DNA of 8,237 bases, taken from IMG/VR virus record IMGVR_UViG_2660238318_000005; one strand, written 5' to 3'. The notes below the pieces were generated by a model that saw only the letters and a program-made list of their open reading frames with translations, had not been told where the DNA came from and made no database searches. Below are positions 70 through 7,173 of the stretch, piece after piece; the first letter of the stretch is position 1, and each line of letters starts with the position of its first letter. The position numbers were made by a program, and so were the translations under genes. The DNA is from a virus. Lineage: Duplodnaviria; Heunggongvirae; Uroviricota; Caudoviricetes.

Positions 70-89
70 GACATTCTGAGGTGACAGCG

Positions 90-968
90 ATGATGACGTT
101 TAACCTGCGTGAACAACAAAAAAGACTACAGGCGCGAATGGATGAGTTACGGGCAGAGATTGCATTTGCTCAGAAGGGCGAAAAGCCATGGCCTTATCGT
201 TCCTGCCTGATGCGTGAAGGTCGCGGATATTGCGAAAAACATGGCGAATATCACACGCATATACTGGTGTGGAGCGATCGTAATGGCGAGGACAGAGAAG
301 AAATTTCATGCTGCCCTGACTGCTTAATCGCTGAGGCCAACGATTTGACCATGGAGCTGTCGTCCATCAAGGCGGAAGAGCTGACTGATAACGCCGGAAT
401 TGCCCTGCGTTTTCGGGACTGCGAGTTTGATAATTATCTGGAGGTTAATCCTGGCGCAGCCAGAAATCTTGCGGCCTGTCGCCGCTATGCGGAGAACTGG
501 CCAGATATGCTGGAGAACGGTACCAGTCTTGTTATGACCGGCAGTTGTGGTACCGGAAAAAATCATCTGGCTGTGGCTATGGCAAAACACATCATCCGTA
601 ACTATCTGGCCAGTGTGGAGATCACCGACGTGATGCGCCTTACCCGTGCTGTGAAAAATTGCTGGCGGAATGACAGCGAAAAAACAGCGGATGAAGTTAT
701 TGAGCGTTATGCGTCAATGGATTTGCTGATCATCGACGAAGTTGGCGTTCAGTTTGGCAGCGCGGCTGAAATGGCTATTTTGCAGGAAATTATCAACGCC
801 AGGTACGAAAGTATCTTGCCCACCATTCTGATCAGTAACCTCTCACCGGAAGAGTTGTGGGCGTTCATCAGTCCCCGAATTGCCGACAGGATCACAGACG
901 GGGGACGCAACTGGTTGTCGTTTAACTGGCCCAGTTACCGTTCTCGTATCAGAGGTGTGGCTGCATGA
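90..968 (+). CDS. Phage replication protein, DnaC/IstB-family AAA+ helicase loader with an N-terminal Cys/His-rich region
   Basis: Walker A GSCGTGKNHLA and Walker B LLIIDEVG in the translation. ATG at 90 follows GAGGTG (78-83) at good spacing; the track's GTG start at 21 would lie inside the IS end. Stop overlaps the next start (ATGA at 965-968). Confidence 0.75.
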   Translation: MMTFNLREQQKRLQARMDELRAEIAFAQKGEKPWPYRSCLMREGRGYCEKHGEYHTHILVWSDRNGEDREEISCCPDCLIAEANDLTMELSSIKAEELTDNAGIALRFRDCEFDNYLEVNPGAARNLAACRRYAENWPDMLENGTSLVMTGSCGTGKNHLAVAMAKHIIRNYLASVEITDVMRLTRAVKNCWRNDSEKTADEVIERYASMDLLIIDEVGVQFGSAAEMAILQEIINARYESILPTILISNLSPEELWAFISPRIADRITDGGRNWLSFNWPSYRSRIRGVAA

Positions 969-2356
969 CAACTCCAGTATGGCGTAACGATGACCTTGAA
1001 GGCGCTGTCATCGGCGCGTTCTTTCTGCGCGGAGCAGATCCTGAAGTGATGGATATTCTGGCCACACTGCCAGCGGACGTTTTTTCTGTACGAGCGTATC
1101 AGGATATCTATACAGGCATCTGCAGACAGGCCCGTGTTTCAGGAGTGATTGACCCCGTGCTGTTGTGTAATGAGATGCCGGAACTTGCCCCGGTGATTAC
1201 TGATACCGGGCGTAAAACCTGGGTGAAGTCTTCACTGGAGCACTATGTTGCAGCGTTGCGGCGCAATGCCGCACTGCGCGATGCAGAAAAAACACTGAAT
1301 GAGGCGCTGCAGAAATTACGTGATGCGCATACCTGTGAAGCAGCTGAAGATGCCCTGAAGGATGCGCAGAACATGATGGTCACACTGTCGACAGGAAAGG
1401 GCGTCATTCAGCCGGTACATATTGATGATGTGCTTCCGGAAGTGGTTGAGCGTGTTGAATGCCGGAATCAGGGGCTGGAGAAATCCAGGACGTTGATGAC
1501 CGGTATTGATGAACTGGACGCAAAAACAGGCGGTATGGAGCCCGGAGACCTGGTATTCATTGCCGCCCGTCCTTCGATGGGGAAAACCGAACTTGCGCTG
1601 GACATCATCGACAAGGTGACTGAGCAGGGGCATGGTGTGCTTCTGTTCACCATGGAGATGGCGAACATCCAGATTGGTGAACGTATGGTGTCTGCGGCTG
1701 GAGGGATGCCAGTATCACGCCTGAAATCTGTGGCTCACTTTGAAGATGAAGACTGGACGCGTTTCTCACAAGGGGTGGGGCGGATGACCGGGCGCAATAT
1801 CTGGATGGTGGACCAGGCGAACCTGGCCATTGATGAGATATGCGCAACAACGAAACACCACCTGATTAAATATCCGGAAACGGCGCTGGTGGTGGTTGAT
1901 TATCTCGGGCTGATAAAAAACCGAACCACGGGGCGTCATGACCTTGCCGTGGGTGAAATCTCAAAGGGGCTTAAAGGCCTGGCAAAATCCGGTGGTTTTC
2001 CGTTGATTGCGCTGAGCCAGCTCTCCCGCGGTGTGGAGTCCAGACCCAATAAACGTCCCATGAACTCAGACCTGAAAAATTCCGGAGAAATAGAGGCGGA
2101 TGCAGACATCATTCTGATGCTTTACAGGGATGAAGTGTACAACCCGGATACGCAGGCCAGGGGCATCGCAGAAATCAATATCACGAAACAACGTAACGGT
2201 TCTCTGGGAACGATTTACCGGCGTTTTTATAACGGACATTTTCTGCCTGTGGACCAGGAAAGTGCACGGGTGCTTTCCACTCCCATGAAGCCCGGCAATC
2301 CGCGCAGATACAGTAATAAACGAACTGACAGCAGTAAGATGGAGCGTTTCTTTTGA
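965..2356 (+). CDS. DnaB-family replicative DNA helicase (phage P-like function)
   Basis: 463-aa ORF with RecA-fold motifs: Walker A AARPSMGKT, Walker B-like LVVVDYLGL, and a QLSRG segment. Start is coupled to the upstream stop by an ATGA overlap. Confidence 0.85.
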   Translation: MTTPVWRNDDLEGAVIGAFFLRGADPEVMDILATLPADVFSVRAYQDIYTGICRQARVSGVIDPVLLCNEMPELAPVITDTGRKTWVKSSLEHYVAALRRNAALRDAEKTLNEALQKLRDAHTCEAAEDALKDAQNMMVTLSTGKGVIQPVHIDDVLPEVVERVECRNQGLEKSRTLMTGIDELDAKTGGMEPGDLVFIAARPSMGKTELALDIIDKVTEQGHGVLLFTMEMANIQIGERMVSAAGGMPVSRLKSVAHFEDEDWTRFSQGVGRMTGRNIWMVDQANLAIDEICATTKHHLIKYPETALVVVDYLGLIKNRTTGRHDLAVGEISKGLKGLAKSGGFPLIALSQLSRGVESRPNKRPMNSDLKNSGEIEADADIILMLYRDEVYNPDTQARGIAEINITKQRNGSLGTIYRRFYNGHFLPVDQESARVLSTPMKPGNPRRYSNKRTDSSKMERFF

Positions 2357-2610
2357 ACAACCAGACAATGACTTTTACCCCTGAACAATTGCGTAAACAC
2401 GCGCAGGAAATGCTGCGTCATGCTGAACAACTCGAAAAAACGGGCATAACAAAAGATGCTATCCGTAAAGATATGGTACCCGCGCTTCGGGAACTGATGC
2501 AGGCGAAGCATCGCGCACAGAAAGCAGTAGATGAGCTGGTGGACTGTGTGGCAGAGCTGGAAACCAGAGTCGGAAAGTTTGAAAAACTGGTGCAGGAGGC
2601 GCTGCGCTGA
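2353..2610 (+). CDS. Hypothetical small protein, predicted helical/coiled-coil, unknown function
   Basis: ORF in the ren/nin position after the helicase. TTG at 2353 has GGAG 8 nt upstream and overlaps the helicase stop; an alternative ATG at 2368 would give 80 aa. No recognisable motif. Confidence 0.45.
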   Translation: MNNQTMTFTPEQLRKHAQEMLRHAEQLEKTGITKDAIRKDMVPALRELMQAKHRAQKAVDELVDCVAELETRVGKFEKLVQEALR

Positions 2611-2705
2611 TGCGCCATGAGTTTGTTTTGCCCTGGCTTGTGCGCGATCATTATGTCCCTGGTGGAAAGCCCGGGATAAAAATCACCGAACCGGAGAGTA
2701 TTTGA
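2610..2705 (+). pseudogene. rusA: rusA remnant: 31-codon in-frame internal-deletion derivative of a RusA Holliday-junction resolvase gene
   Basis: Peptide MRHEFVLPWLVRDHYVPGGKPGIKITEPESI matches the N-terminus (EFVLPYPP) and C-terminus (VRGQLVPGGRLGIKITELGCA) of the intact rusA at 3862-4227, also at nucleotide level (gaatttgttttgcc; ggataaaaatcac). The roughly 90 codons between are missing. Confidence 0.75.
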
Positions 2706-2905
2706 TGAGCGTCAAAATTCAAACGATACCGGAACTGCTTATCCAGACACGAGGTAATATGACCGAAGTTTCACGAATGCTGAACTGTAATCGCGCCACG
2801 GTAAGAAAATATGCTGAAGATAAAGAGGGCAAAGGGCACGCCATTGTTGATGGTGTTCTGATTGTTCATCGTGGATGGGACAGGGGTAAAGACAGTGATG
2901 CGTGA
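2705..2905 (+). CDS. ninH: NinH-like protein
   Basis: 66-aa product [59 protein letters not shown]... aligns along its length with lambda NinH as I recall it. Start overlaps the rusA-remnant stop (TGATG); it sits directly upstream of Q as in lambdoid phages. Confidence 0.85.
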
Positions 2906-3278
2906 TATTCAGCAGGTTCTTGAGCGCTGGGGCGCGTGGGTGGCTAATAATCATGAGGATGTGACCTGGTCGTCCATTGCTGCCGGTTTTAAGGGATTAA
3001 TCCCTTCAAAAGTAAAATCCCGCCCGCAATGCTGTGACGATGACGCGATGGTTATATGTGGGTGTATGGCCCGCCTTAACCGGAACAACAACGATCTACA
3101 TGACTTGCTGGTTGACTACTACGTGTTTGGGATGACATTCATGACGCTGGCGCGGAAGCATGGATGCTCAGATGGTTATATAGGAAAGAAGCTACAAAAA
3201 GCCGAGGGGGTGGTGGAAGGAATGTTGATGATGTTGGGTGTCCGGTTAGAAATGGACAAATATATTGAACATCCCTGA
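2898..3278 (+). CDS. Late antiterminator Q, short Q21/QuuD-type
   Basis: 126-aa product with cysteine cluster [16 protein letters not shown]; closely resembles the DLP12 QuuD sequence as I recall it. ATG at 2898 overlaps the ninH stop. A tR'-like terminator follows 87 bp downstream. Confidence 0.75.
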
Positions 3279-3364
3279 TGGTAAGGGGCGACTTTCTAGA
3301 AAATATTTTACGTACGTAAAAAACGGGATATTCTGTTAAGAGTGGTTGCTTCGCCACACAGCTT

Positions 3365-3389
3365 AAACCCGCCTCCGGGCGGGTTTTTT
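3365..3389 (+). terminator. Rho-independent terminator, tR'-like, downstream of Q
   Basis: Perfect 9-bp stem AAACCCGCC / GGCGGGTTT around loop TCCG, followed by a T-run. Near-identical in architecture to the terminator at 4975-5000. Confidence 0.7.
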
Positions 3390-3477
3390 ATGCCTGAAAA
3401 ACGGTACAGGACGTTAAACACGCTGGTGGTCAGATGAGTTTGCAGATGTGATGACATATGGTTATTATTCTGCCTCC

Positions 3478-3490
3478 GGCCCTTTAGCTC
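3478..3490 (+). tRNA. 5' fragment (13 nt) of a tRNA gene, truncated by the scaffold gap
   Basis: GGCCCTTTAGCTC is identical to the first 13 nt of the tRNA at 5106-5181. The preceding spacer shares motifs (CGCTGGTGG, GTTATTAT) with the region upstream of that tRNA. Confidence 0.5.
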
Positions 3491-3500
3491 NNNNNNNNNN
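3491..3500. other. Assembly/scaffold gap (N10)
   Basis: Run of 10 N; flanks are unrelated (tRNA 5' end on the left, mid-ORF sequence on the right). Confidence 0.9.
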
Positions 3501-3588
3501 TCCACCACAGGAAGAGACGGTGGTCAGCATTGCCGTTGATCCGGAATCTCCGGCTCAGTATCTCCAGCGCCAGAAACCACAACGGGAA

Positions 3589-3861
3589 GAGATGCCTGTA
3601 TACACGCGCTGGGTAAAAACGCAGAAATGCATGACGTGTGGCAATCAGGCAGATGATCCGCACCACATCATTGGTCATGGACTGGGAGGGATGGGAACAA
3701 AGGCTGACGATTTGTTTGTTATTCCGCTGTGTCGTAAATGCCATAACGAACTACACGCCGGGGTAAAAGATTTTGAAGAAAAACACGGTAGTCAGTTGTT
3801 GTTGCTGATTCGTTTTTTAATGCACGCGAGAAATTCGGGTGTTCTGAAGTGGAAAGCATAA
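3589..3861 (+). CDS. YbcO-like (DUF1364-type) Cys/His-rich putative zinc-binding nuclease-like phage protein; may extend upstream into the gap
   Basis: CxxC...HH...C..CH..H motif (CMTCGNQADDPHHIIGHGLGGMGTKADDLFVIPLCRKCHNELH). Sits immediately upstream of rusA, as ybcO does in DLP12. The frame is open back to the gap at 3501, so the true 5' end is uncertain. Confidence 0.55.
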   Translation, partial: EMPVYTRWVKTQKCMTCGNQADDPHHIIGHGLGGMGTKADDLFVIPLCRKCHNELHAGVKDFEEKHGSQLLLLIRFLMHARNSGVLKWKA

Positions 3862-4227
3862 ATGACCGAACGCATAGAATTTGTTTTGCCTTACCCGCCA
3901 ACGGTGAACACCTACTGGCGACGTCGTGGCAGCACATATTTTGTATCAAAAGCCGGTGAGCGTTATCGCCGTGATGTGGCGCTAATTGTTCGCCAGCAGC
4001 GACTGAAATTAAACCTGTCCGGAAGGCTGGCGATAAAGATTATTGCAGAGCCACCGGATAAGCGCCGTCGTGACCTGGACAATATCCTGAAGGCACCGCT
4101 GGATGCGCTGACGCATGCTGGACTACTTATAGACGACGAGCAGTTTGATGAAATCAATATTGTGCGCGGTCAGCTCGTTCCTGGTGGGCGGCTGGGGATA
4201 AAAATCACAGAACTGGGGTGCGCATGA
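3862..4227 (+). CDS. rusA: RusA-family Holliday junction resolvase
   Basis: 121-aa product with RusA hallmarks (RRRDLDN acidic motif, C-terminal GGRLGIKITELG). ATG follows the upstream stop directly (TAAATG). Confidence 0.85.
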   Translation: MTERIEFVLPYPPTVNTYWRRRGSTYFVSKAGERYRRDVALIVRQQRLKLNLSGRLAIKIIAEPPDKRRRDLDNILKAPLDALTHAGLLIDDEQFDEINIVRGQLVPGGRLGIKITELGCA

Positions 4228-4907
4228 ATAACCAGTATTTACAGTTTGTGCGTGAGCAGCTCATTATCGCCACCGCTGATTTGAGTGGGGCAACAAAAGG
4301 TCAGCTTGAAGCCTGGCAAGAGAATGCCATGTTCGATACAGGGCGTTACAGGCGTAAAAAAATCCGGTACCGCGATGAAGTGACTGGAAAAATGATAACG
4401 CGGGATAATCCACCAATCCCGGGAAAGCAATCGCTGGCGAAGGGGACGTCAATTCCTCTGGTCAGTCCGGTTGAGTTTTCGACATCATCGTGGCGGCGGG
4501 CTGTTCTGTCTCTTGAAGAGCACTATAAAGCCTGGTTGTTGTGGTGTTACAGCGGGAGTATTTGTTGGGAATATCAGATCGCGATAACACAGTGGGCGTG
4601 GAATGAATTTAATGCTCAATCCGGTACCAGAAAAATTGCAGGGAAAACGCAGGAACGCCTGAAAAAATTAATCTGGCTGGCGGCGCAGGCAGTAAAAGCA
4701 GAACTTTTTGGTGGGGAAGGTTATGAATACCAGGAGCTGGCATTACTGGCGGGAGTGACAACTAAAAACTGGTCCAAAACATTTACTCGTCACTGGGTTG
4801 CAATGAAACACATTTTTCACCGACTGGATAGTGAGGCTTTATTGTTTGTAATGAGAACACGTTCAAAAAAAAGACGGCATTTTCAAAGCAAAGTGTTGCA
4901 AAAGTAG
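4224..4907 (+). CDS. Putative late antiterminator Q, long type (Q82/QuuQ-like?)
   Basis: Assigned by position: directly after rusA (ATGA overlap) and directly before a consensus-like promoter, a tR'-like terminator, a tRNA cluster and a holin. I did not recognise the sequence itself. Confidence 0.5.
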   Translation: MNNQYLQFVREQLIIATADLSGATKGQLEAWQENAMFDTGRYRRKKIRYRDEVTGKMITRDNPPIPGKQSLAKGTSIPLVSPVEFSTSSWRRAVLSLEEHYKAWLLWCYSGSICWEYQIAITQWAWNEFNAQSGTRKIAGKTQERLKKLIWLAAQAVKAELFGGEGYEYQELALLAGVTTKNWSKTFTRHWVAMKHIFHRLDSEALLFVMRTRSKKRRHFQSKVLQK

Positions 4908-4924
4908 ATTGAAAGGCATATATT
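4896..4924 (+). promoter_or_regulatory. Candidate sigma70 late promoter (pR'-like) overlapping the Q-like gene's 3' end
   Basis: TTGCAA (4896-4901), 17-bp spacer, TATATT (4919-4924). About 50 bp upstream of the tR'-like terminator, which is the pR'/qut/tR' arrangement. Confidence 0.45.
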
Positions 4925-4974
4925 CATGCAAATCTGATACTTTGCCGATTTTGTACGTGATGGCAAAAGCAAAC

Positions 4975-5000
4975 AAAACCCGCCCACAAGCGGGTTTTTT
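4975..5000 (+). terminator. Rho-independent terminator, tR'-like
   Basis: Perfect 9-bp stem AAAACCCGC / GCGGGTTTT around loop CCACAA, then a T-run. Confidence 0.7.
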
Positions 5001-5181: not shown

Positions 5182-5183
5182 AC

Positions 5184-5259
5184 CGCCACTAGCTCATCAG
5201 GAAAGAGCGTCAACCCTTTAAGTTGAGTGTGCGAGGTTCGAGTCCCCGGTGGCGGTCCA
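5184..5259 (+). tRNA. tRNA-like gene with atypical anticodon loop (CCUUUAA: UUU anticodon with C33); identity uncertain
   Basis: Acceptor CCGCCAC/GTGGCGG, D-arm GCTC...GAGC, anticodon stem TCAAC/GTTGA, T-loop TTCGAGT, 3' CCA. The loop lacks the near-universal U33. Confidence 0.55.
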
Positions 5260-5939: not shown

Positions 5940-6006
5940 GTAAGCGCCCCATCAGCGACGTCTTGTGAAAATTGTCCTGTCTGGCAACAATCGCGCCCAT
6001 CTATAT
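5940..6006 (+). mobile_element. Terminus of a repeated element, proposed IS66-family insertion sequence end (copy 1)
   Basis: GTAAGCGCCCCATCAGCGACGTCTTGTGAAAATTGTCCTGTCTGGCAACAATCGCGCCCATCTATA recurs at 6437-6502; both copies run into N10 gaps. IS66-family ends characteristically begin 5'-GTAA; family assignment is from memory. Confidence 0.4.
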
Positions 6007-6016
6007 NNNNNNNNNN
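6007..6016. other. Assembly/scaffold gap (N10)
   Basis: Run of 10 N between the repeated element end and a holin-internal sequence. Confidence 0.9.
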
Positions 6017-6436: not shown

Positions 6437-6502
6437 GTAAGCGCCCCATCAGCGACGTCTTGTGAAAATTGTCCTGTCTGGCAACAATCGCGCCCATCTA
6501 TA
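6437..6502 (+). mobile_element. Terminus of the same repeated element, proposed IS66-family end (copy 2)
   Basis: Same sequence as 5940-6005, again abutting an N10 gap. Confidence 0.4.
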
Positions 6503-6512
6503 NNNNNNNNNN
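6503..6512. other. Assembly/scaffold gap (N10)
   Basis: Run of 10 N. Confidence 0.9.
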
Positions 6513-6543: not shown

Positions 6544-7173
6544 ATGAAGCATGAAGAAATGAATCAGCGATTCAATCACCTGGAAAATGAAATCACTGAG
6601 CTTAATAAAAAATTGTCGGCGTTGGTGAGTTCTGAAGATGAAAACAAACGCCGCGATGAGCATTATGCGGCGATTTACGATTACTGCCACAAAGTCGCTC
6701 ACGAGACTTTTATGAAGTTTTTGCAGGAAAAGTTTTTACCGGCCGCATTGTCAGAAAAAGAGGCGGCTTACCTGCGGCCTGAGTACGTCATTACGGTTAA
6801 CAGTGCCGGAGAGGAAGAGCATAAAAGTGATTTTATTGCGTCTGCACCGGATAAAGACCAGGAACCCCATCGGCCTTTCAGGGTTTCCTGTGAAGAGGGT
6901 GAGTTCGTCGTTTATGAGAACGGAAAACCTGTCCGGGCATCGCATCATCACTGCCTGAAAATTATTAATCTCGCTATCAGATGCCTGAAAGACGAAAACA
7001 CCAGAGTTATGAAACGCATTGGCCGTTGCATGGGGTATTTGCAGGTGGCGGCAGAGATTGAAGCACTTGCCAGTGGTGCAGACATGGATGCTGCGGTGCG
7101 GGAGGCTCTTCTTCGTGATTTCAATACTCCCCCTTTAAGAAAGAGCCTGATGACTGGATCCAGCCGGGGCTGA
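6544..7173 (+). CDS. Hypothetical 209-aa protein between holin and endolysin; no recognisable family, no signal peptide or TM segment
   Basis: Uninterrupted ORF with GGAG upstream of ATG 6544, starting 3 nt after the holin stop. Hydrophilic, with an N-terminal coiled-coil-like stretch (NQRFNHLENEITELNKKLSAL) and an HHHC motif. Confidence 0.5.
   Translation: MKHEEMNQRFNHLENEITELNKKLSALVSSEDENKRRDEHYAAIYDYCHKVAHETFMKFLQEKFLPAALSEKEAAYLRPEYVITVNSAGEEEHKSDFIASAPDKDQEPHRPFRVSCEEGEFVVYENGKPVRASHHHCLKIINLAIRCLKDENTRVMKRIGRCMGYLQVAAEIEALASGADMDAAVREALLRDFNTPPLRKSLMTGSSRG

Follow-up and report, generated by a model that had tools for sequence, protein, structure and literature searches.

An open reading frame of 31 codons that separates ninH from the replication module of a prophage is probably a rusA remnant at the joint of two phage modules

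Introduction

The closest described relatives of the locus studied here fall on two sides. On one side, rusA-ninH-Q is the standard lambdoid arrangement, present in HK97, HK022, Shigella phage 75/02 Stx and RM9088, with rusA-ninH only in the G1/2 prophage; RusA itself, a Holliday-junction resolvase, is represented by rusA of E. coli DLP12 and rus of phage 82 (PDB 1Q8R and 2H8C; Pfam PF05866). On the other side is the phiP27-type replication module, which ends in a DnaB-type helicase and an open reading frame (ORF) of 85 amino acids. A further point of reference is nin5, a laboratory deletion of about 2.8 kb in phage lambda, which removes terminators together with several nin genes and thereby confers N-independence. 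Within the nin regions of lambdoid phages, overlapping stop and start codons are the rule (PMC8022706).

We analysed a stretch of phage DNA of 8,237 nt (hereafter the window; IMG/VR record IMGVR_UViG_2660238318_000005), in which a 31-codon ORF lies between genes of the two kinds. We conclude, with a probability of roughly 80%, that this ORF is a non-functional rusA remnant situated at the joint of two phage modules.

Results

Gene order between the helicase and Q

All features described below are on the plus strand. The DnaB-type replicative helicase (965-2356; Pfam DnaB_C, E = 2.6e-72) is the final large gene of a phiP27-type replication module; the nucleotide identity of its region is 93.6% with phiP27 L18-L20 and 98.8% with the RMDEC332 prophage. 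It is followed by the 85-aa ORF (2353-2610), of unknown function, which matches phrog_2565 (E = 2.7e-32) and, in a Pfam search, no family above the cut-off. This ORF, always located directly 3′ of a phiP27-type helicase, occurs in 349 of 5,426 complete E. coli genomes, and its stop codon (TGA, 2608-2610) overlaps the ATG of the next gene, whichever gene fills that slot. Near its end a Shine-Dalgarno-like GGAGG can be read in the sequence (2595-2599), 10 nt 5′ of the ATG at 2610; this putative ribosome-binding site also precedes Q or a full rusA in the relatives. The 31-codon ORF (MRHEFVLPWLVRDHYVPGGKPGIKITEPESI; 2610-2705, stop included) comes next, and its stop overlaps in turn the start of ninH (TGATG).

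The ninH gene (2705-2905, 66 aa; WP_000111769.1) matches Phage_NinH (PF06322, E = 3.6e-26) over profile positions 1-59 of 60, and it adjoins and overlaps by 8 nt the start of Q. The latter (2898-3278, 126 aa; WP_001204832.1; phrog_79) is a late-gene antiterminator of the phage-82/quuD type, covering positions 1-118 of the 118 of Phage_antitermQ (PF06530, E = 5.8e-54); downstream of it, complete genomes have tRNAs and the holin and lysis genes. For both genes we used the RefSeq starts, i.e. ATG 2705 for ninH (assigned on identical DNA) and ATG 2898 for Q, the ORF list having TTG 2702 and TTG 2862, respectively. The distance from the helicase stop (2356) to the Q ATG (2898) is thus 541 nt, and the interval contains the 85-aa ORF, the 31-codon ORF and ninH, so that the layout given in the initial annotation (about 540 bp holding a small ORF, a rusA relic and ninH) was confirmed with all its coordinates. 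The stop/start overlaps at 2353-2356, 2610, 2705 and 2898-2905 give the interval the tight packing of a nin region; of the genes of such a region (ninB (orf), ninC-ninG or equivalents), the interval has no more than ninH and the remnant of rusA. The 31-codon ORF and ninH are flanked by a 7-nt direct repeat, TGATGCG, with a left copy at 2608-2614 and a right copy at 2896-2902, the latter within the conserved Q start context TGATGCGTGATAT. The 85-aa ORF and Q of phiP27 and RMDEC332 meet at one TGATGCG, without a second copy.

Both ends of the 31-codon ORF match rusA

Two-register alignment to rusA divides the ORF into a 5′ piece (2610-2637), corresponding to rusA nt 1-28, i.e. codons 1-9 plus one base, and a 3′ piece (2638-2705), corresponding to nt 293-360 in 360-nt numbering, i.e. 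the last 22 codons and the stop. At the 5′ end, 22 of 27 nt are identical to the GB089 rusA that follows the same 85-aa ORF (binomial p ~1e-9), and this 22/27 match, with the same TGATG overlap, is common to the rusA starts of GB089, 14EC047 and SJ7; the CCCTGGC contained in the piece matches the G1/2 rusA. At the other end, nt 28-96 of the remnant are identical to a stop-aligned rusA 3′ end at 49 of 69 positions (p ~1e-15); the score was 42-49/69 for five of the eight alleles compared and 39/69 for the other three. Over the last 33 nt, identity with the G1/2 rusA, which lies before ninH, is 85% and, in BLASTN searches, the ninH alignments with HK97, HK022 and Stx phages continue past the rusA/ninH boundary into the remnant. 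The ORF is in frame and 96 nt long, against 360-372 nt for full rusA genes, so that about 88 internal codons (~264 nt) are absent. Homology at both ends, together with the neighbours and the conserved stop/start overlaps, argues for descent from rusA. The view that the relic keeps the ends of rusA in frame therefore stands, with the numbers of codons, previously put at about 9 and 20, corrected to 9 and 22.

As to the product, it has no Pfam match and no PHROG match at E ≤ 0.01, and at 31 aa it does not match the PF05866 profile, the domain of which spans about 110-120 residues. When the remnant alignment is combined with an alignment of rusA to PDB 1Q8R, residues 11-98 fall within the missing part. 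The remnant is thus without Asp70, Asp72, Asp91 and Lys76, which we take to be the catalytic residues of RusA, and therefore can neither cut junctions nor be a resolvase. The 36 nt that follow the junction are unusually divergent, with 50-67% identity to every known rusA allele, which could reflect pseudogene drift or descent from an unsampled rusA allele. No description of this remnant was found in the literature.

Copies and single origin

The identical remnant was found in nine of 5,426 complete E. coli genomes, in 16 IMG/VR contigs and in one metagenome contig, as well as in E. coli ECMA0423 and S. flexneri SFBU1023; in a protein index it occurs on at least 1,000 contigs. All the copies found have the same gene order and differ by 0-1 SNP over 2353-2905, with one F5S variant, and the 90%-identity protein cluster of the remnant has two members. 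The exact ninH allele of the window was found only together with the remnant. The near-identity of the copies and their constant gene order point to one event in one prophage lineage; they do not fit the possibility that the 31-codon gene belongs to an independent conserved family. At least one carrier, the RMDEC364 prophage, looks complete, extending from integrase to tail genes and adjoining mlrA.

The junction and how the remnant may have arisen

The junction was mapped by fixed-register comparison against eight rusA alleles. A MAFFT alignment of the remnant with the rusA gene at 3862-4227 of the window was discarded in favour of these comparisons, as the 5′ end was broken up in it and AGTTTG wrongly placed. 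The sequence shared at the junction amounts to 0-1 nt with all the available rusA references. The proposal of a deletion between short repeats is consequently not supported, the overlap of 0-1 nt being measured on relatives and not on a parent. Two candidate repeats were rejected. AGTTTG is found in both registers at the same remnant coordinates, and it does not mark the junction, because the next 12 nt still agree with the 5′ register (8-9/12), whereas agreement with the 3′ register is lacking (2/12). The two copies of CCCTGG (remnant nt 22-27 and 48-53) are in different frames and would have led to a different product.

A full-length parent, i.e. a rusA with the 3′ end of the remnant or a full rusA followed by the ninH allele of the remnant, was found neither among NinH-protein loci of IMG/VR and GTDB genomes nor by the other searches. 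Exact and degenerate patterns for both remnant ends returned from IMG/VR identical relic copies only or nothing; a gapped pattern combining an MRHEF-start rusA with a ninH behind it gave no matches; of the metagenome scans, one gave nothing and another one relic copy; and tblastn with the C-terminal 22 aa against phages gave at best 59-65% identity (E ~2). Breakpoints, order of events and microhomology are for that reason deduced from relatives only.

We propose that the left partner would have been a replication module of phiP27 type (with a DnaC-like loader, the DnaB helicase, the 85-aa ORF and, optionally, rusA) and the right partner a lambdoid late-regulator module, rusA-ninH-Q, the two being joined through their rusA genes. 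The ~264 nt (88 codons) of rusA interior would have been lost either during the joining itself, as an unequal exchange, or through a deletion at a later time that kept the frame. We take this to be a single event in the ancestor of a prophage that Shigella flexneri now commonly carries and that is also found in some E. coli. Thus, the idea of one internal deletion of rusA is retained in so far as the ORF is an in-frame derivative without the interior, but an unequal exchange between modules is equally proposed. The joint is an ordinary by-product of phage mosaic evolution.

A one-step origin, by an unequal (illegitimate) crossover between the 5′ part of a phiP27-group rusA and the 3′ part of a lambdoid rusA, is possible, although we consider it doubtful; it is a version of the scenario just given and leaves the identity of the ORF as a rusA remnant unchanged. 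We are equally hesitant about its corollary that a full-length hybrid intermediate never existed. It requires one event and not two, and agrees with the character of the ends: the 5′ piece has the phiP27-group start (MRHEF, as in the GB089, 14EC047 and SJ7 alleles), the extreme 3′ piece (GIKITE to a final I and the stop, overlapping ninH) is of lambdoid type, and the full-length hybrid is absent from all the collections searched. Such a hybrid is nevertheless plausible, since rusA alleles recombine homologously; the rusA at 3862 combines a GB089-type body with a GIKITE-type tail. Moreover, the segment after the junction, TTGTGCGCG..CCTGGTGG, agrees with the phiP27-group allele at 24 of 36 positions versus 18 of 36 for the lambdoid allele, a likeness that fits a later deletion inside a hybrid rusA.

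Possible role of the remnant

The surviving ends of rusA may carry translation signals: on the 5′ side, the ATG overlapping the stop of the 85-aa ORF, with GGAGG before it; on the 3′ side, a GGAG (2693-2696) inside the 3′ piece, 8 nt 5′ of the ninH ATG, together with the stop overlapping that ATG. Judging from these overlaps and Shine-Dalgarno-like motifs, from which translational coupling is deduced, the remnant probably has no role beyond the transfer of ribosomes between the 85-aa ORF and the ninH and Q genes of a tightly coupled early-right operon.

It is improbable that the 31-aa product is a functional micro-protein or that the ORF is a translational bridge kept by selection. One could invoke the fact that the ORF is intact, in frame, preceded by GGAGG and coupled by start and stop on both sides, and that at least 1,000 contigs have kept it, among them a prophage that looks complete. 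However, an in-frame outcome had a one-in-three chance anyway, clonal descent explains the retention, and sequence diversity is near zero for any selection test. Homologues of the remnant were not found outside the lineage, relatives express Q from the same ATG without a bridge, and the R-to-K and L-to-P changes in the conserved GGRL motif may indicate relaxed constraint. We hold it similarly improbable that the remnant would be retained since ribosomes need stop/start-coupled read-through to reach ninH and Q. If this were true, selection would favour gene stumps at module joints for their use as translational adaptors, and the conserved TGATGCG boundary would be a reusable docking sequence for swaps of late-regulator cassettes.

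The slot after the 85-aa ORF in relatives

In the inspected relatives of the replication module, 0-2 genes (rusA, DUF968) lie in the slot that separates the 85-aa ORF from the antiterminator, and ninB to ninG are absent from it in all of them. The arrangements are 85aa-Q, 85aa-rusA-Q, 85aa-rusA-DUF1133, 85aa-DUF968-Q, 85aa-DUF968-rusA-DUF1133 and 85aa-antiterminator. A full rusA directly follows the same 85-aa ORF, with the TGATG overlap and the MRHEF start, in GB089, 14EC047 and SJ7; in E21845 the rusA of this slot starts with MRLEC. In RMDEC332, the nearest relative (identity of 98.8% over 3 kb), the 85-aa ORF is immediately followed by Q. Similarity to RMDEC332 ends exactly at 2614 and resumes at 2896, and compared with it the window carries about 283 bp more, not less. 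A short spacing between helicase and Q is therefore the normal state of the phiP27-type group and not a derived collapse, and the slot after the 85-aa ORF appears as a small exchangeable cassette site.

These data bear on the proposal that a lambda-like nin region of several kb (ninB to ninG/rusA) was collapsed by one or more large nin5-like deletions, which we regard as very unlikely. Its starting point is sound, in that ninH and the 3′ end of rusA derive from a module of lambdoid nin type, in which rusA is preceded by ninB, ninE, DUF1364 and others. But none of the inspected relatives of the replication module has ninB to ninG, and the nearest one has even shorter DNA in the slot. Furthermore, the 5′ end of the remnant is the start of the rusA that, in the phiP27-type group, is located directly after the 85-aa ORF, so the missing DNA is just the rusA interior (~264 nt). 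Equally unlikely is the extension according to which terminators were lost too, making Q expression N-independent. An N homologue was not recognised among the three leftward early ORFs tested, which is weak negative evidence in its favour. In a consensus scan, which covers terminators other than the Rho-dependent type, matches in the window (2200-3490) and in the full-length relative GB089 (L002, 5000-6300) were at shuffle background, and none inside the GB089 rusA was convincing; the scan thus places no terminators in the deleted DNA. The analogy with nin5 falls with these results, the loss being one of ~264 nt within one coding sequence.

The second rusA of the window

The full rusA at 3862-4227 (PF05866, E = 8.7e-16), against which alignment of the remnant had been suggested, is separated from it by an N10 scaffold gap (3491-3500), and it belongs to a different prophage, its distance from the remnant in complete genomes ranging from about 250 kb to over 1 Mb. 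The window does hold mis-joined pieces (N10 gaps at 3491, 6007 and 6503; bases 1-69 map elsewhere in the prophage), but the chance that the 31-codon ORF itself results from a mis-join is negligible and is refuted by complete genomes, since bases 70-3490 are continuous and match a complete closed genome at 99.85% identity, and since the independent complete genomes that were inspected have the same 2353-2905 segment (0-1 SNP).

Discussion

The value of this finding is chiefly one of annotation. The remnant is widespread in prophages of Shigella flexneri and E. coli, where PGAP leaves the interval unannotated in complete genomes and S. flexneri records carry it as 'hypothetical protein' (e.g. 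AKK56826.1, SF2A_03645); these entries are better described as a rusA pseudogene remnant. The remnant is also a clean, datable marker of one recombination between a phiP27-type replication module and a lambdoid rusA-ninH-Q cassette. The observations have no bearing on the biology of antitermination and do not reveal a new system.

Compared with RusA, the remnant has homologous first 9 and last 22 codons, and these ends are placed as in rusA, after the 85-aa ORF as in the phiP27 group and before ninH as in lambdoid phages; it differs by its size (31 aa versus about 120 aa) and by the lack of residues 11-98 and of the catalytic aspartates. phiP27, the Stx1a phages LC5678xx and RMDEC332 have the same module of DnaC-like gene, DnaB gene and 85-aa ORF, with 89-99% nucleotide identity. 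They and the window also have in common a PF06530-type Q within a few hundred bp of the helicase and a tRNA cluster after Q. In these phages, however, Q adjoins the 85-aa ORF, whose stop overlaps the Q ATG, whereas in the window the remnant and ninH are interposed as a 288-bp segment, and the Q allele is a different one (~85% identity at its start).

On the right-hand side, HK97 (gp67-gp68), HK022, Shigella phage 75/02 Stx, POCJ13 and the RM9088 Stx1a prophage have the same order of rusA 3′ end, ninH and Q, with stops and starts overlapping as in the window and a ninH that is 76-83% identical at the nucleotide level; they carry, however, a full rusA after DUF1364, ninE, ninB and others, while the window has the last 68 nt only. 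With lambda nin5, the likeness is limited to the shorter DNA between replication genes and Q, the window differing by the loss of ~264 nt within one gene in an interval whose shortness is normal for its group. A parallel is provided by the mosaic joints of HK97/HK022 type, where a gene leftover is likewise found at the point where similarity switches between relatives and where overlapping stop/start signals are conserved; we see no essential difference from these joints, of which the remnant is one more example.

Gene layout and integrity of the sequence

Gene order was taken from the ORF listing together with Pfam and PHROG scans. A DnaC/IstB-like loader (90-968 in the RefSeq annotation; Pfam IstB_IS21) is followed by the DnaB helicase (965-2356; DnaB_C, 2.6e-72), an 85-aa ORF of phrog_2565, a family of unknown function (2353-2610), a 31-codon ORF with no family match (2610-2705), ninH (ATG at 2705, to 2905; Phage_NinH, 3.6e-26) and the late-gene antiterminator gene Q (ATG at 2898, to 3278; PF06530, 5.8e-54). 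All boundaries overlap, by TTGA at 2353-2356, by TGATG at 2608-2612 and 2703-2707, and by 8 nt between ninH and Q; nin regions are as a rule packed with such stop/start overlaps (PMC8022706). The initial annotation had pointed to a short helicase-Q interval holding a small ORF, a rusA relic and ninH, and this observation is confirmed, with 541 nt between the helicase stop and the Q ATG.

Non-adjacent contigs, linked by runs of ten N (3491-3500, 6007-6016 and 6503-6512), make up the window, and gene neighbourhood across these joins is not real. The piece 3501-5000 lies ~250 kb to >1 Mb from the relic locus in the complete genomes FDAARGOS_944 and FDAARGOS_943. Bases 1-69 map to a different part of the relic-bearing prophage than bases 70-3490, namely to the DNA directly 3′ of an IS911 copy. 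The latter piece is uninterrupted, contains 2353-2905 and matches a closed E. coli O121 chromosome at 99.85% identity, which rules out an assembly artefact as the source of this interval. A sequence of ~60 nt common to 5947-6006 and 6443-6502 (...GAAAATTGTCCTGTCTGGCAACAATCGCGCCCATCTATA) abuts two different gaps and looks like an insertion-sequence end where contigs broke. The class II holin is present as two near-duplicate fragments on different contig pieces (5708-5923 and 6017-6143).

The 31-codon ORF as a remnant of rusA

The 31-codon product, MRHEFVLPWLVRDHYVPGGKPGIKITEPESI, was compared with products of full-length rusA, the Holliday-junction resolvase gene. In GB089, 14EC047 and SJ7 the 85-aa ORF is succeeded, across an identical TGATG overlap, by a complete rusA (119 aa, starting MRHEFILPYPP); in E21845, rusA also occupies this place but starts MRLEC. 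A full rusA ending in VPGGR(L/V)GIKITELENI precedes ninH and then Q, with overlapping stops and starts, in HK97, HK022, Shigella phage 75/02 Stx and the RM9088 prophage; the G1/2 prophage has rusA then ninH only. In fixed register, nucleotides 1-27 of the relic match the GB089-type start at 22/27 positions (binomial p ~1e-9), and over nucleotides 28-96 agreement with rusA 3′ ends aligned at the stop reaches 49/69 (p ~1e-15). The switch of register falls between CCCTGGC (nt 28) and TTGTGCGCG (nt 29); nt 29-292 in 360-nt numbering are absent, an in-frame loss of 264 nt (88 codons). These matches support the proposal of an in-frame internal-deletion remnant. By alignment with PDB 1Q8R, the absent part is residues 11-98 of E. 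coli RusA, within which lie the catalytic residues Asp70, Asp72, Asp91 and Lys76; the remnant cannot act as a resolvase.

A deletion between short repeats had also been suggested, but at most one base is common to both sides of the breakpoints with all eight reference rusA alleles, and against these references a repeat-mediated event is therefore not supported. AGTTTG was rejected as a junction repeat because its relic coordinates do not differ between the two registers; CCCTGG, present twice within the relic, is not the junction either. Over its initial 36 nt the 3′ piece diverges unusually far from each rusA allele (50-67% identity), with changes at conserved positions (G to D, R to K, L to P in the GGRL motif), which would fit either relaxed constraint or an unsampled allele.

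The slot downstream of the 85-aa ORF

The helicase and 85-aa ORF form a phiP27-type module (89-94% nucleotide identity to phiP27 and Stx1a phages), and the 85-aa ORF is present in 349 of 5,426 complete E. coli genomes. The slot between this ORF and the antiterminator gene is empty, with Q at the overlapping ATG, in phiP27, Stx1a phages, RMDEC332 and most of the 80-90% identity class. Elsewhere it holds rusA before Q (E21845/O/A), rusA before DUF1133 (GB089, 14EC047, SJ7), DUF968 before Q (O157:H7 F6294) or DUF968 and rusA before DUF1133 (O55:H7 RM12579, ETEC6); in a pigeon strain a 276-aa antiterminator follows directly. RMDEC332, the nearest relative of the replication module (98.8% identity over 2,979 bp), has Q directly 3′ of the 85-aa ORF. 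Similarity to it ends at 2614 and restarts at 2896; compared with RMDEC332, the window has added DNA (relic and ninH) and another Q allele. The collapse of a multi-kb nin region, as initially proposed, finds no support here: ninB to ninG were found in none of the inspected slots, and the nearest relative has less DNA at this place. Nor does the analogy with nin5, based on terminator loss, since terminator-like matches in the interval and across a relative with full-length rusA were at shuffle background.

A 7-nt direct repeat, TGATGCG (2608-2614 and 2896-2902), flanks the remnant plus ninH and is single copy in phiP27-type relatives, precisely at the 85-aa ORF/Q junction. In the three other joints read, of ninH/Q and DUF968/Q type, Q starts in the context TGATGCGTGATAT; the E21845 rusA/Q joint has GATGGTGCGTGATAT in its place. 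TGATGCG may mark a site of repeated crossover, at which cassettes are exchanged or lost, or may just reflect conservation of the start signals.

Distribution and carrier prophages

Searches with exact and degenerate-codon patterns for both relic ends, and NinH-based locus searches, gave identical copies only (16 IMG/VR contigs, 1 metagenome contig, E. coli ECMA0423 and S. flexneri SFBU1023). At least 1,000 contigs (1,709 index blocks) carry the exact 31-aa sequence, which public protein sets list as "hypothetical/uncharacterised protein [Shigella flexneri]"; its identification is thus of use for annotation. The 90%-identity cluster has two members, one being an F5S variant from a single contig, and the eight places read agree in gene order, with 0-1 SNP over 2353-2905. 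The initial annotation had named a conserved independent family as what would refute the deletion reading; the ORF is not a diverse independent family, and this uniformity points to one event in one lineage.

The RMDEC364 carrier prophage (locus L028, 5515-41001) looks complete, from integrase to tail genes, and is integrated beside mlrA (yehV), where Stx phages are known to integrate; other relic-carrying prophages are riddled with IS elements. In RMDEC364 the genes of a ParDE toxin-antitoxin pair and of KilA-N lie between those for lysis and terminase, and, as in the window (6544-7173), a conserved 209-aa ORF of unknown function stands between holin and lysozyme. In complete genomes the holin/lysis region of the relic-bearing prophage is interrupted by IS911 or IS600 copies. 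In the GCA_008973575.1 carrier (locus L054, 4212-5633), a group II intron reverse transcriptase (RVT_1 and GIIM) lies ~540 bp 3′ of Q, where other relic copies have the tRNA cluster and holin. In the window, the second tRNA of the phage tRNA cluster (5183-5259) has anticodon TTT (Lys by ARAGORN); its homologue in the relic-bearing prophage (locus L001, 8257-8333; 93% identity) has TCT (Arg), with paired acceptor-stem changes (CCGCC/GGCGG against CCACC/GGTGG), and the anticodon may have shifted.

Origin of the remnant and comparison with other lambdoid phages

Most likely, it was through rusA that a replication module of phiP27 type became joined to a lambdoid rusA-ninH-Q cassette, and the interior of rusA was lost during the module exchange or afterwards. 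Another prophage is the source of window 3448-4907, a second module of late regulators that comprises the C-terminal part of DUF968 (cut by the gap), a full-length rusA (3862-4227) and Q of the PF06323 type (4218-4907). In this rusA a GB089-type (phiP27-group-type) body is combined with a lambdoid GIKITE-type tail; rusA alleles are thus themselves recombinant, which makes a full-length hybrid intermediate plausible, and none was found by the end-pattern and NinH-locus searches. The relic ends keep translation signals (the ATG at 2610 has GGAGG 10 nt upstream of it, that of ninH has GGAG at 8 nt), and the remnant probably merely relays ribosomes within a coupled operon. The locus is an ordinary case of a gene stump left where segments of a phage mosaic meet. 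The rusA-ninH-Q order with overlapping stop and start codons is common to it and to HK97, HK022, 75/02 Stx and RM9088, but only here is rusA truncated.
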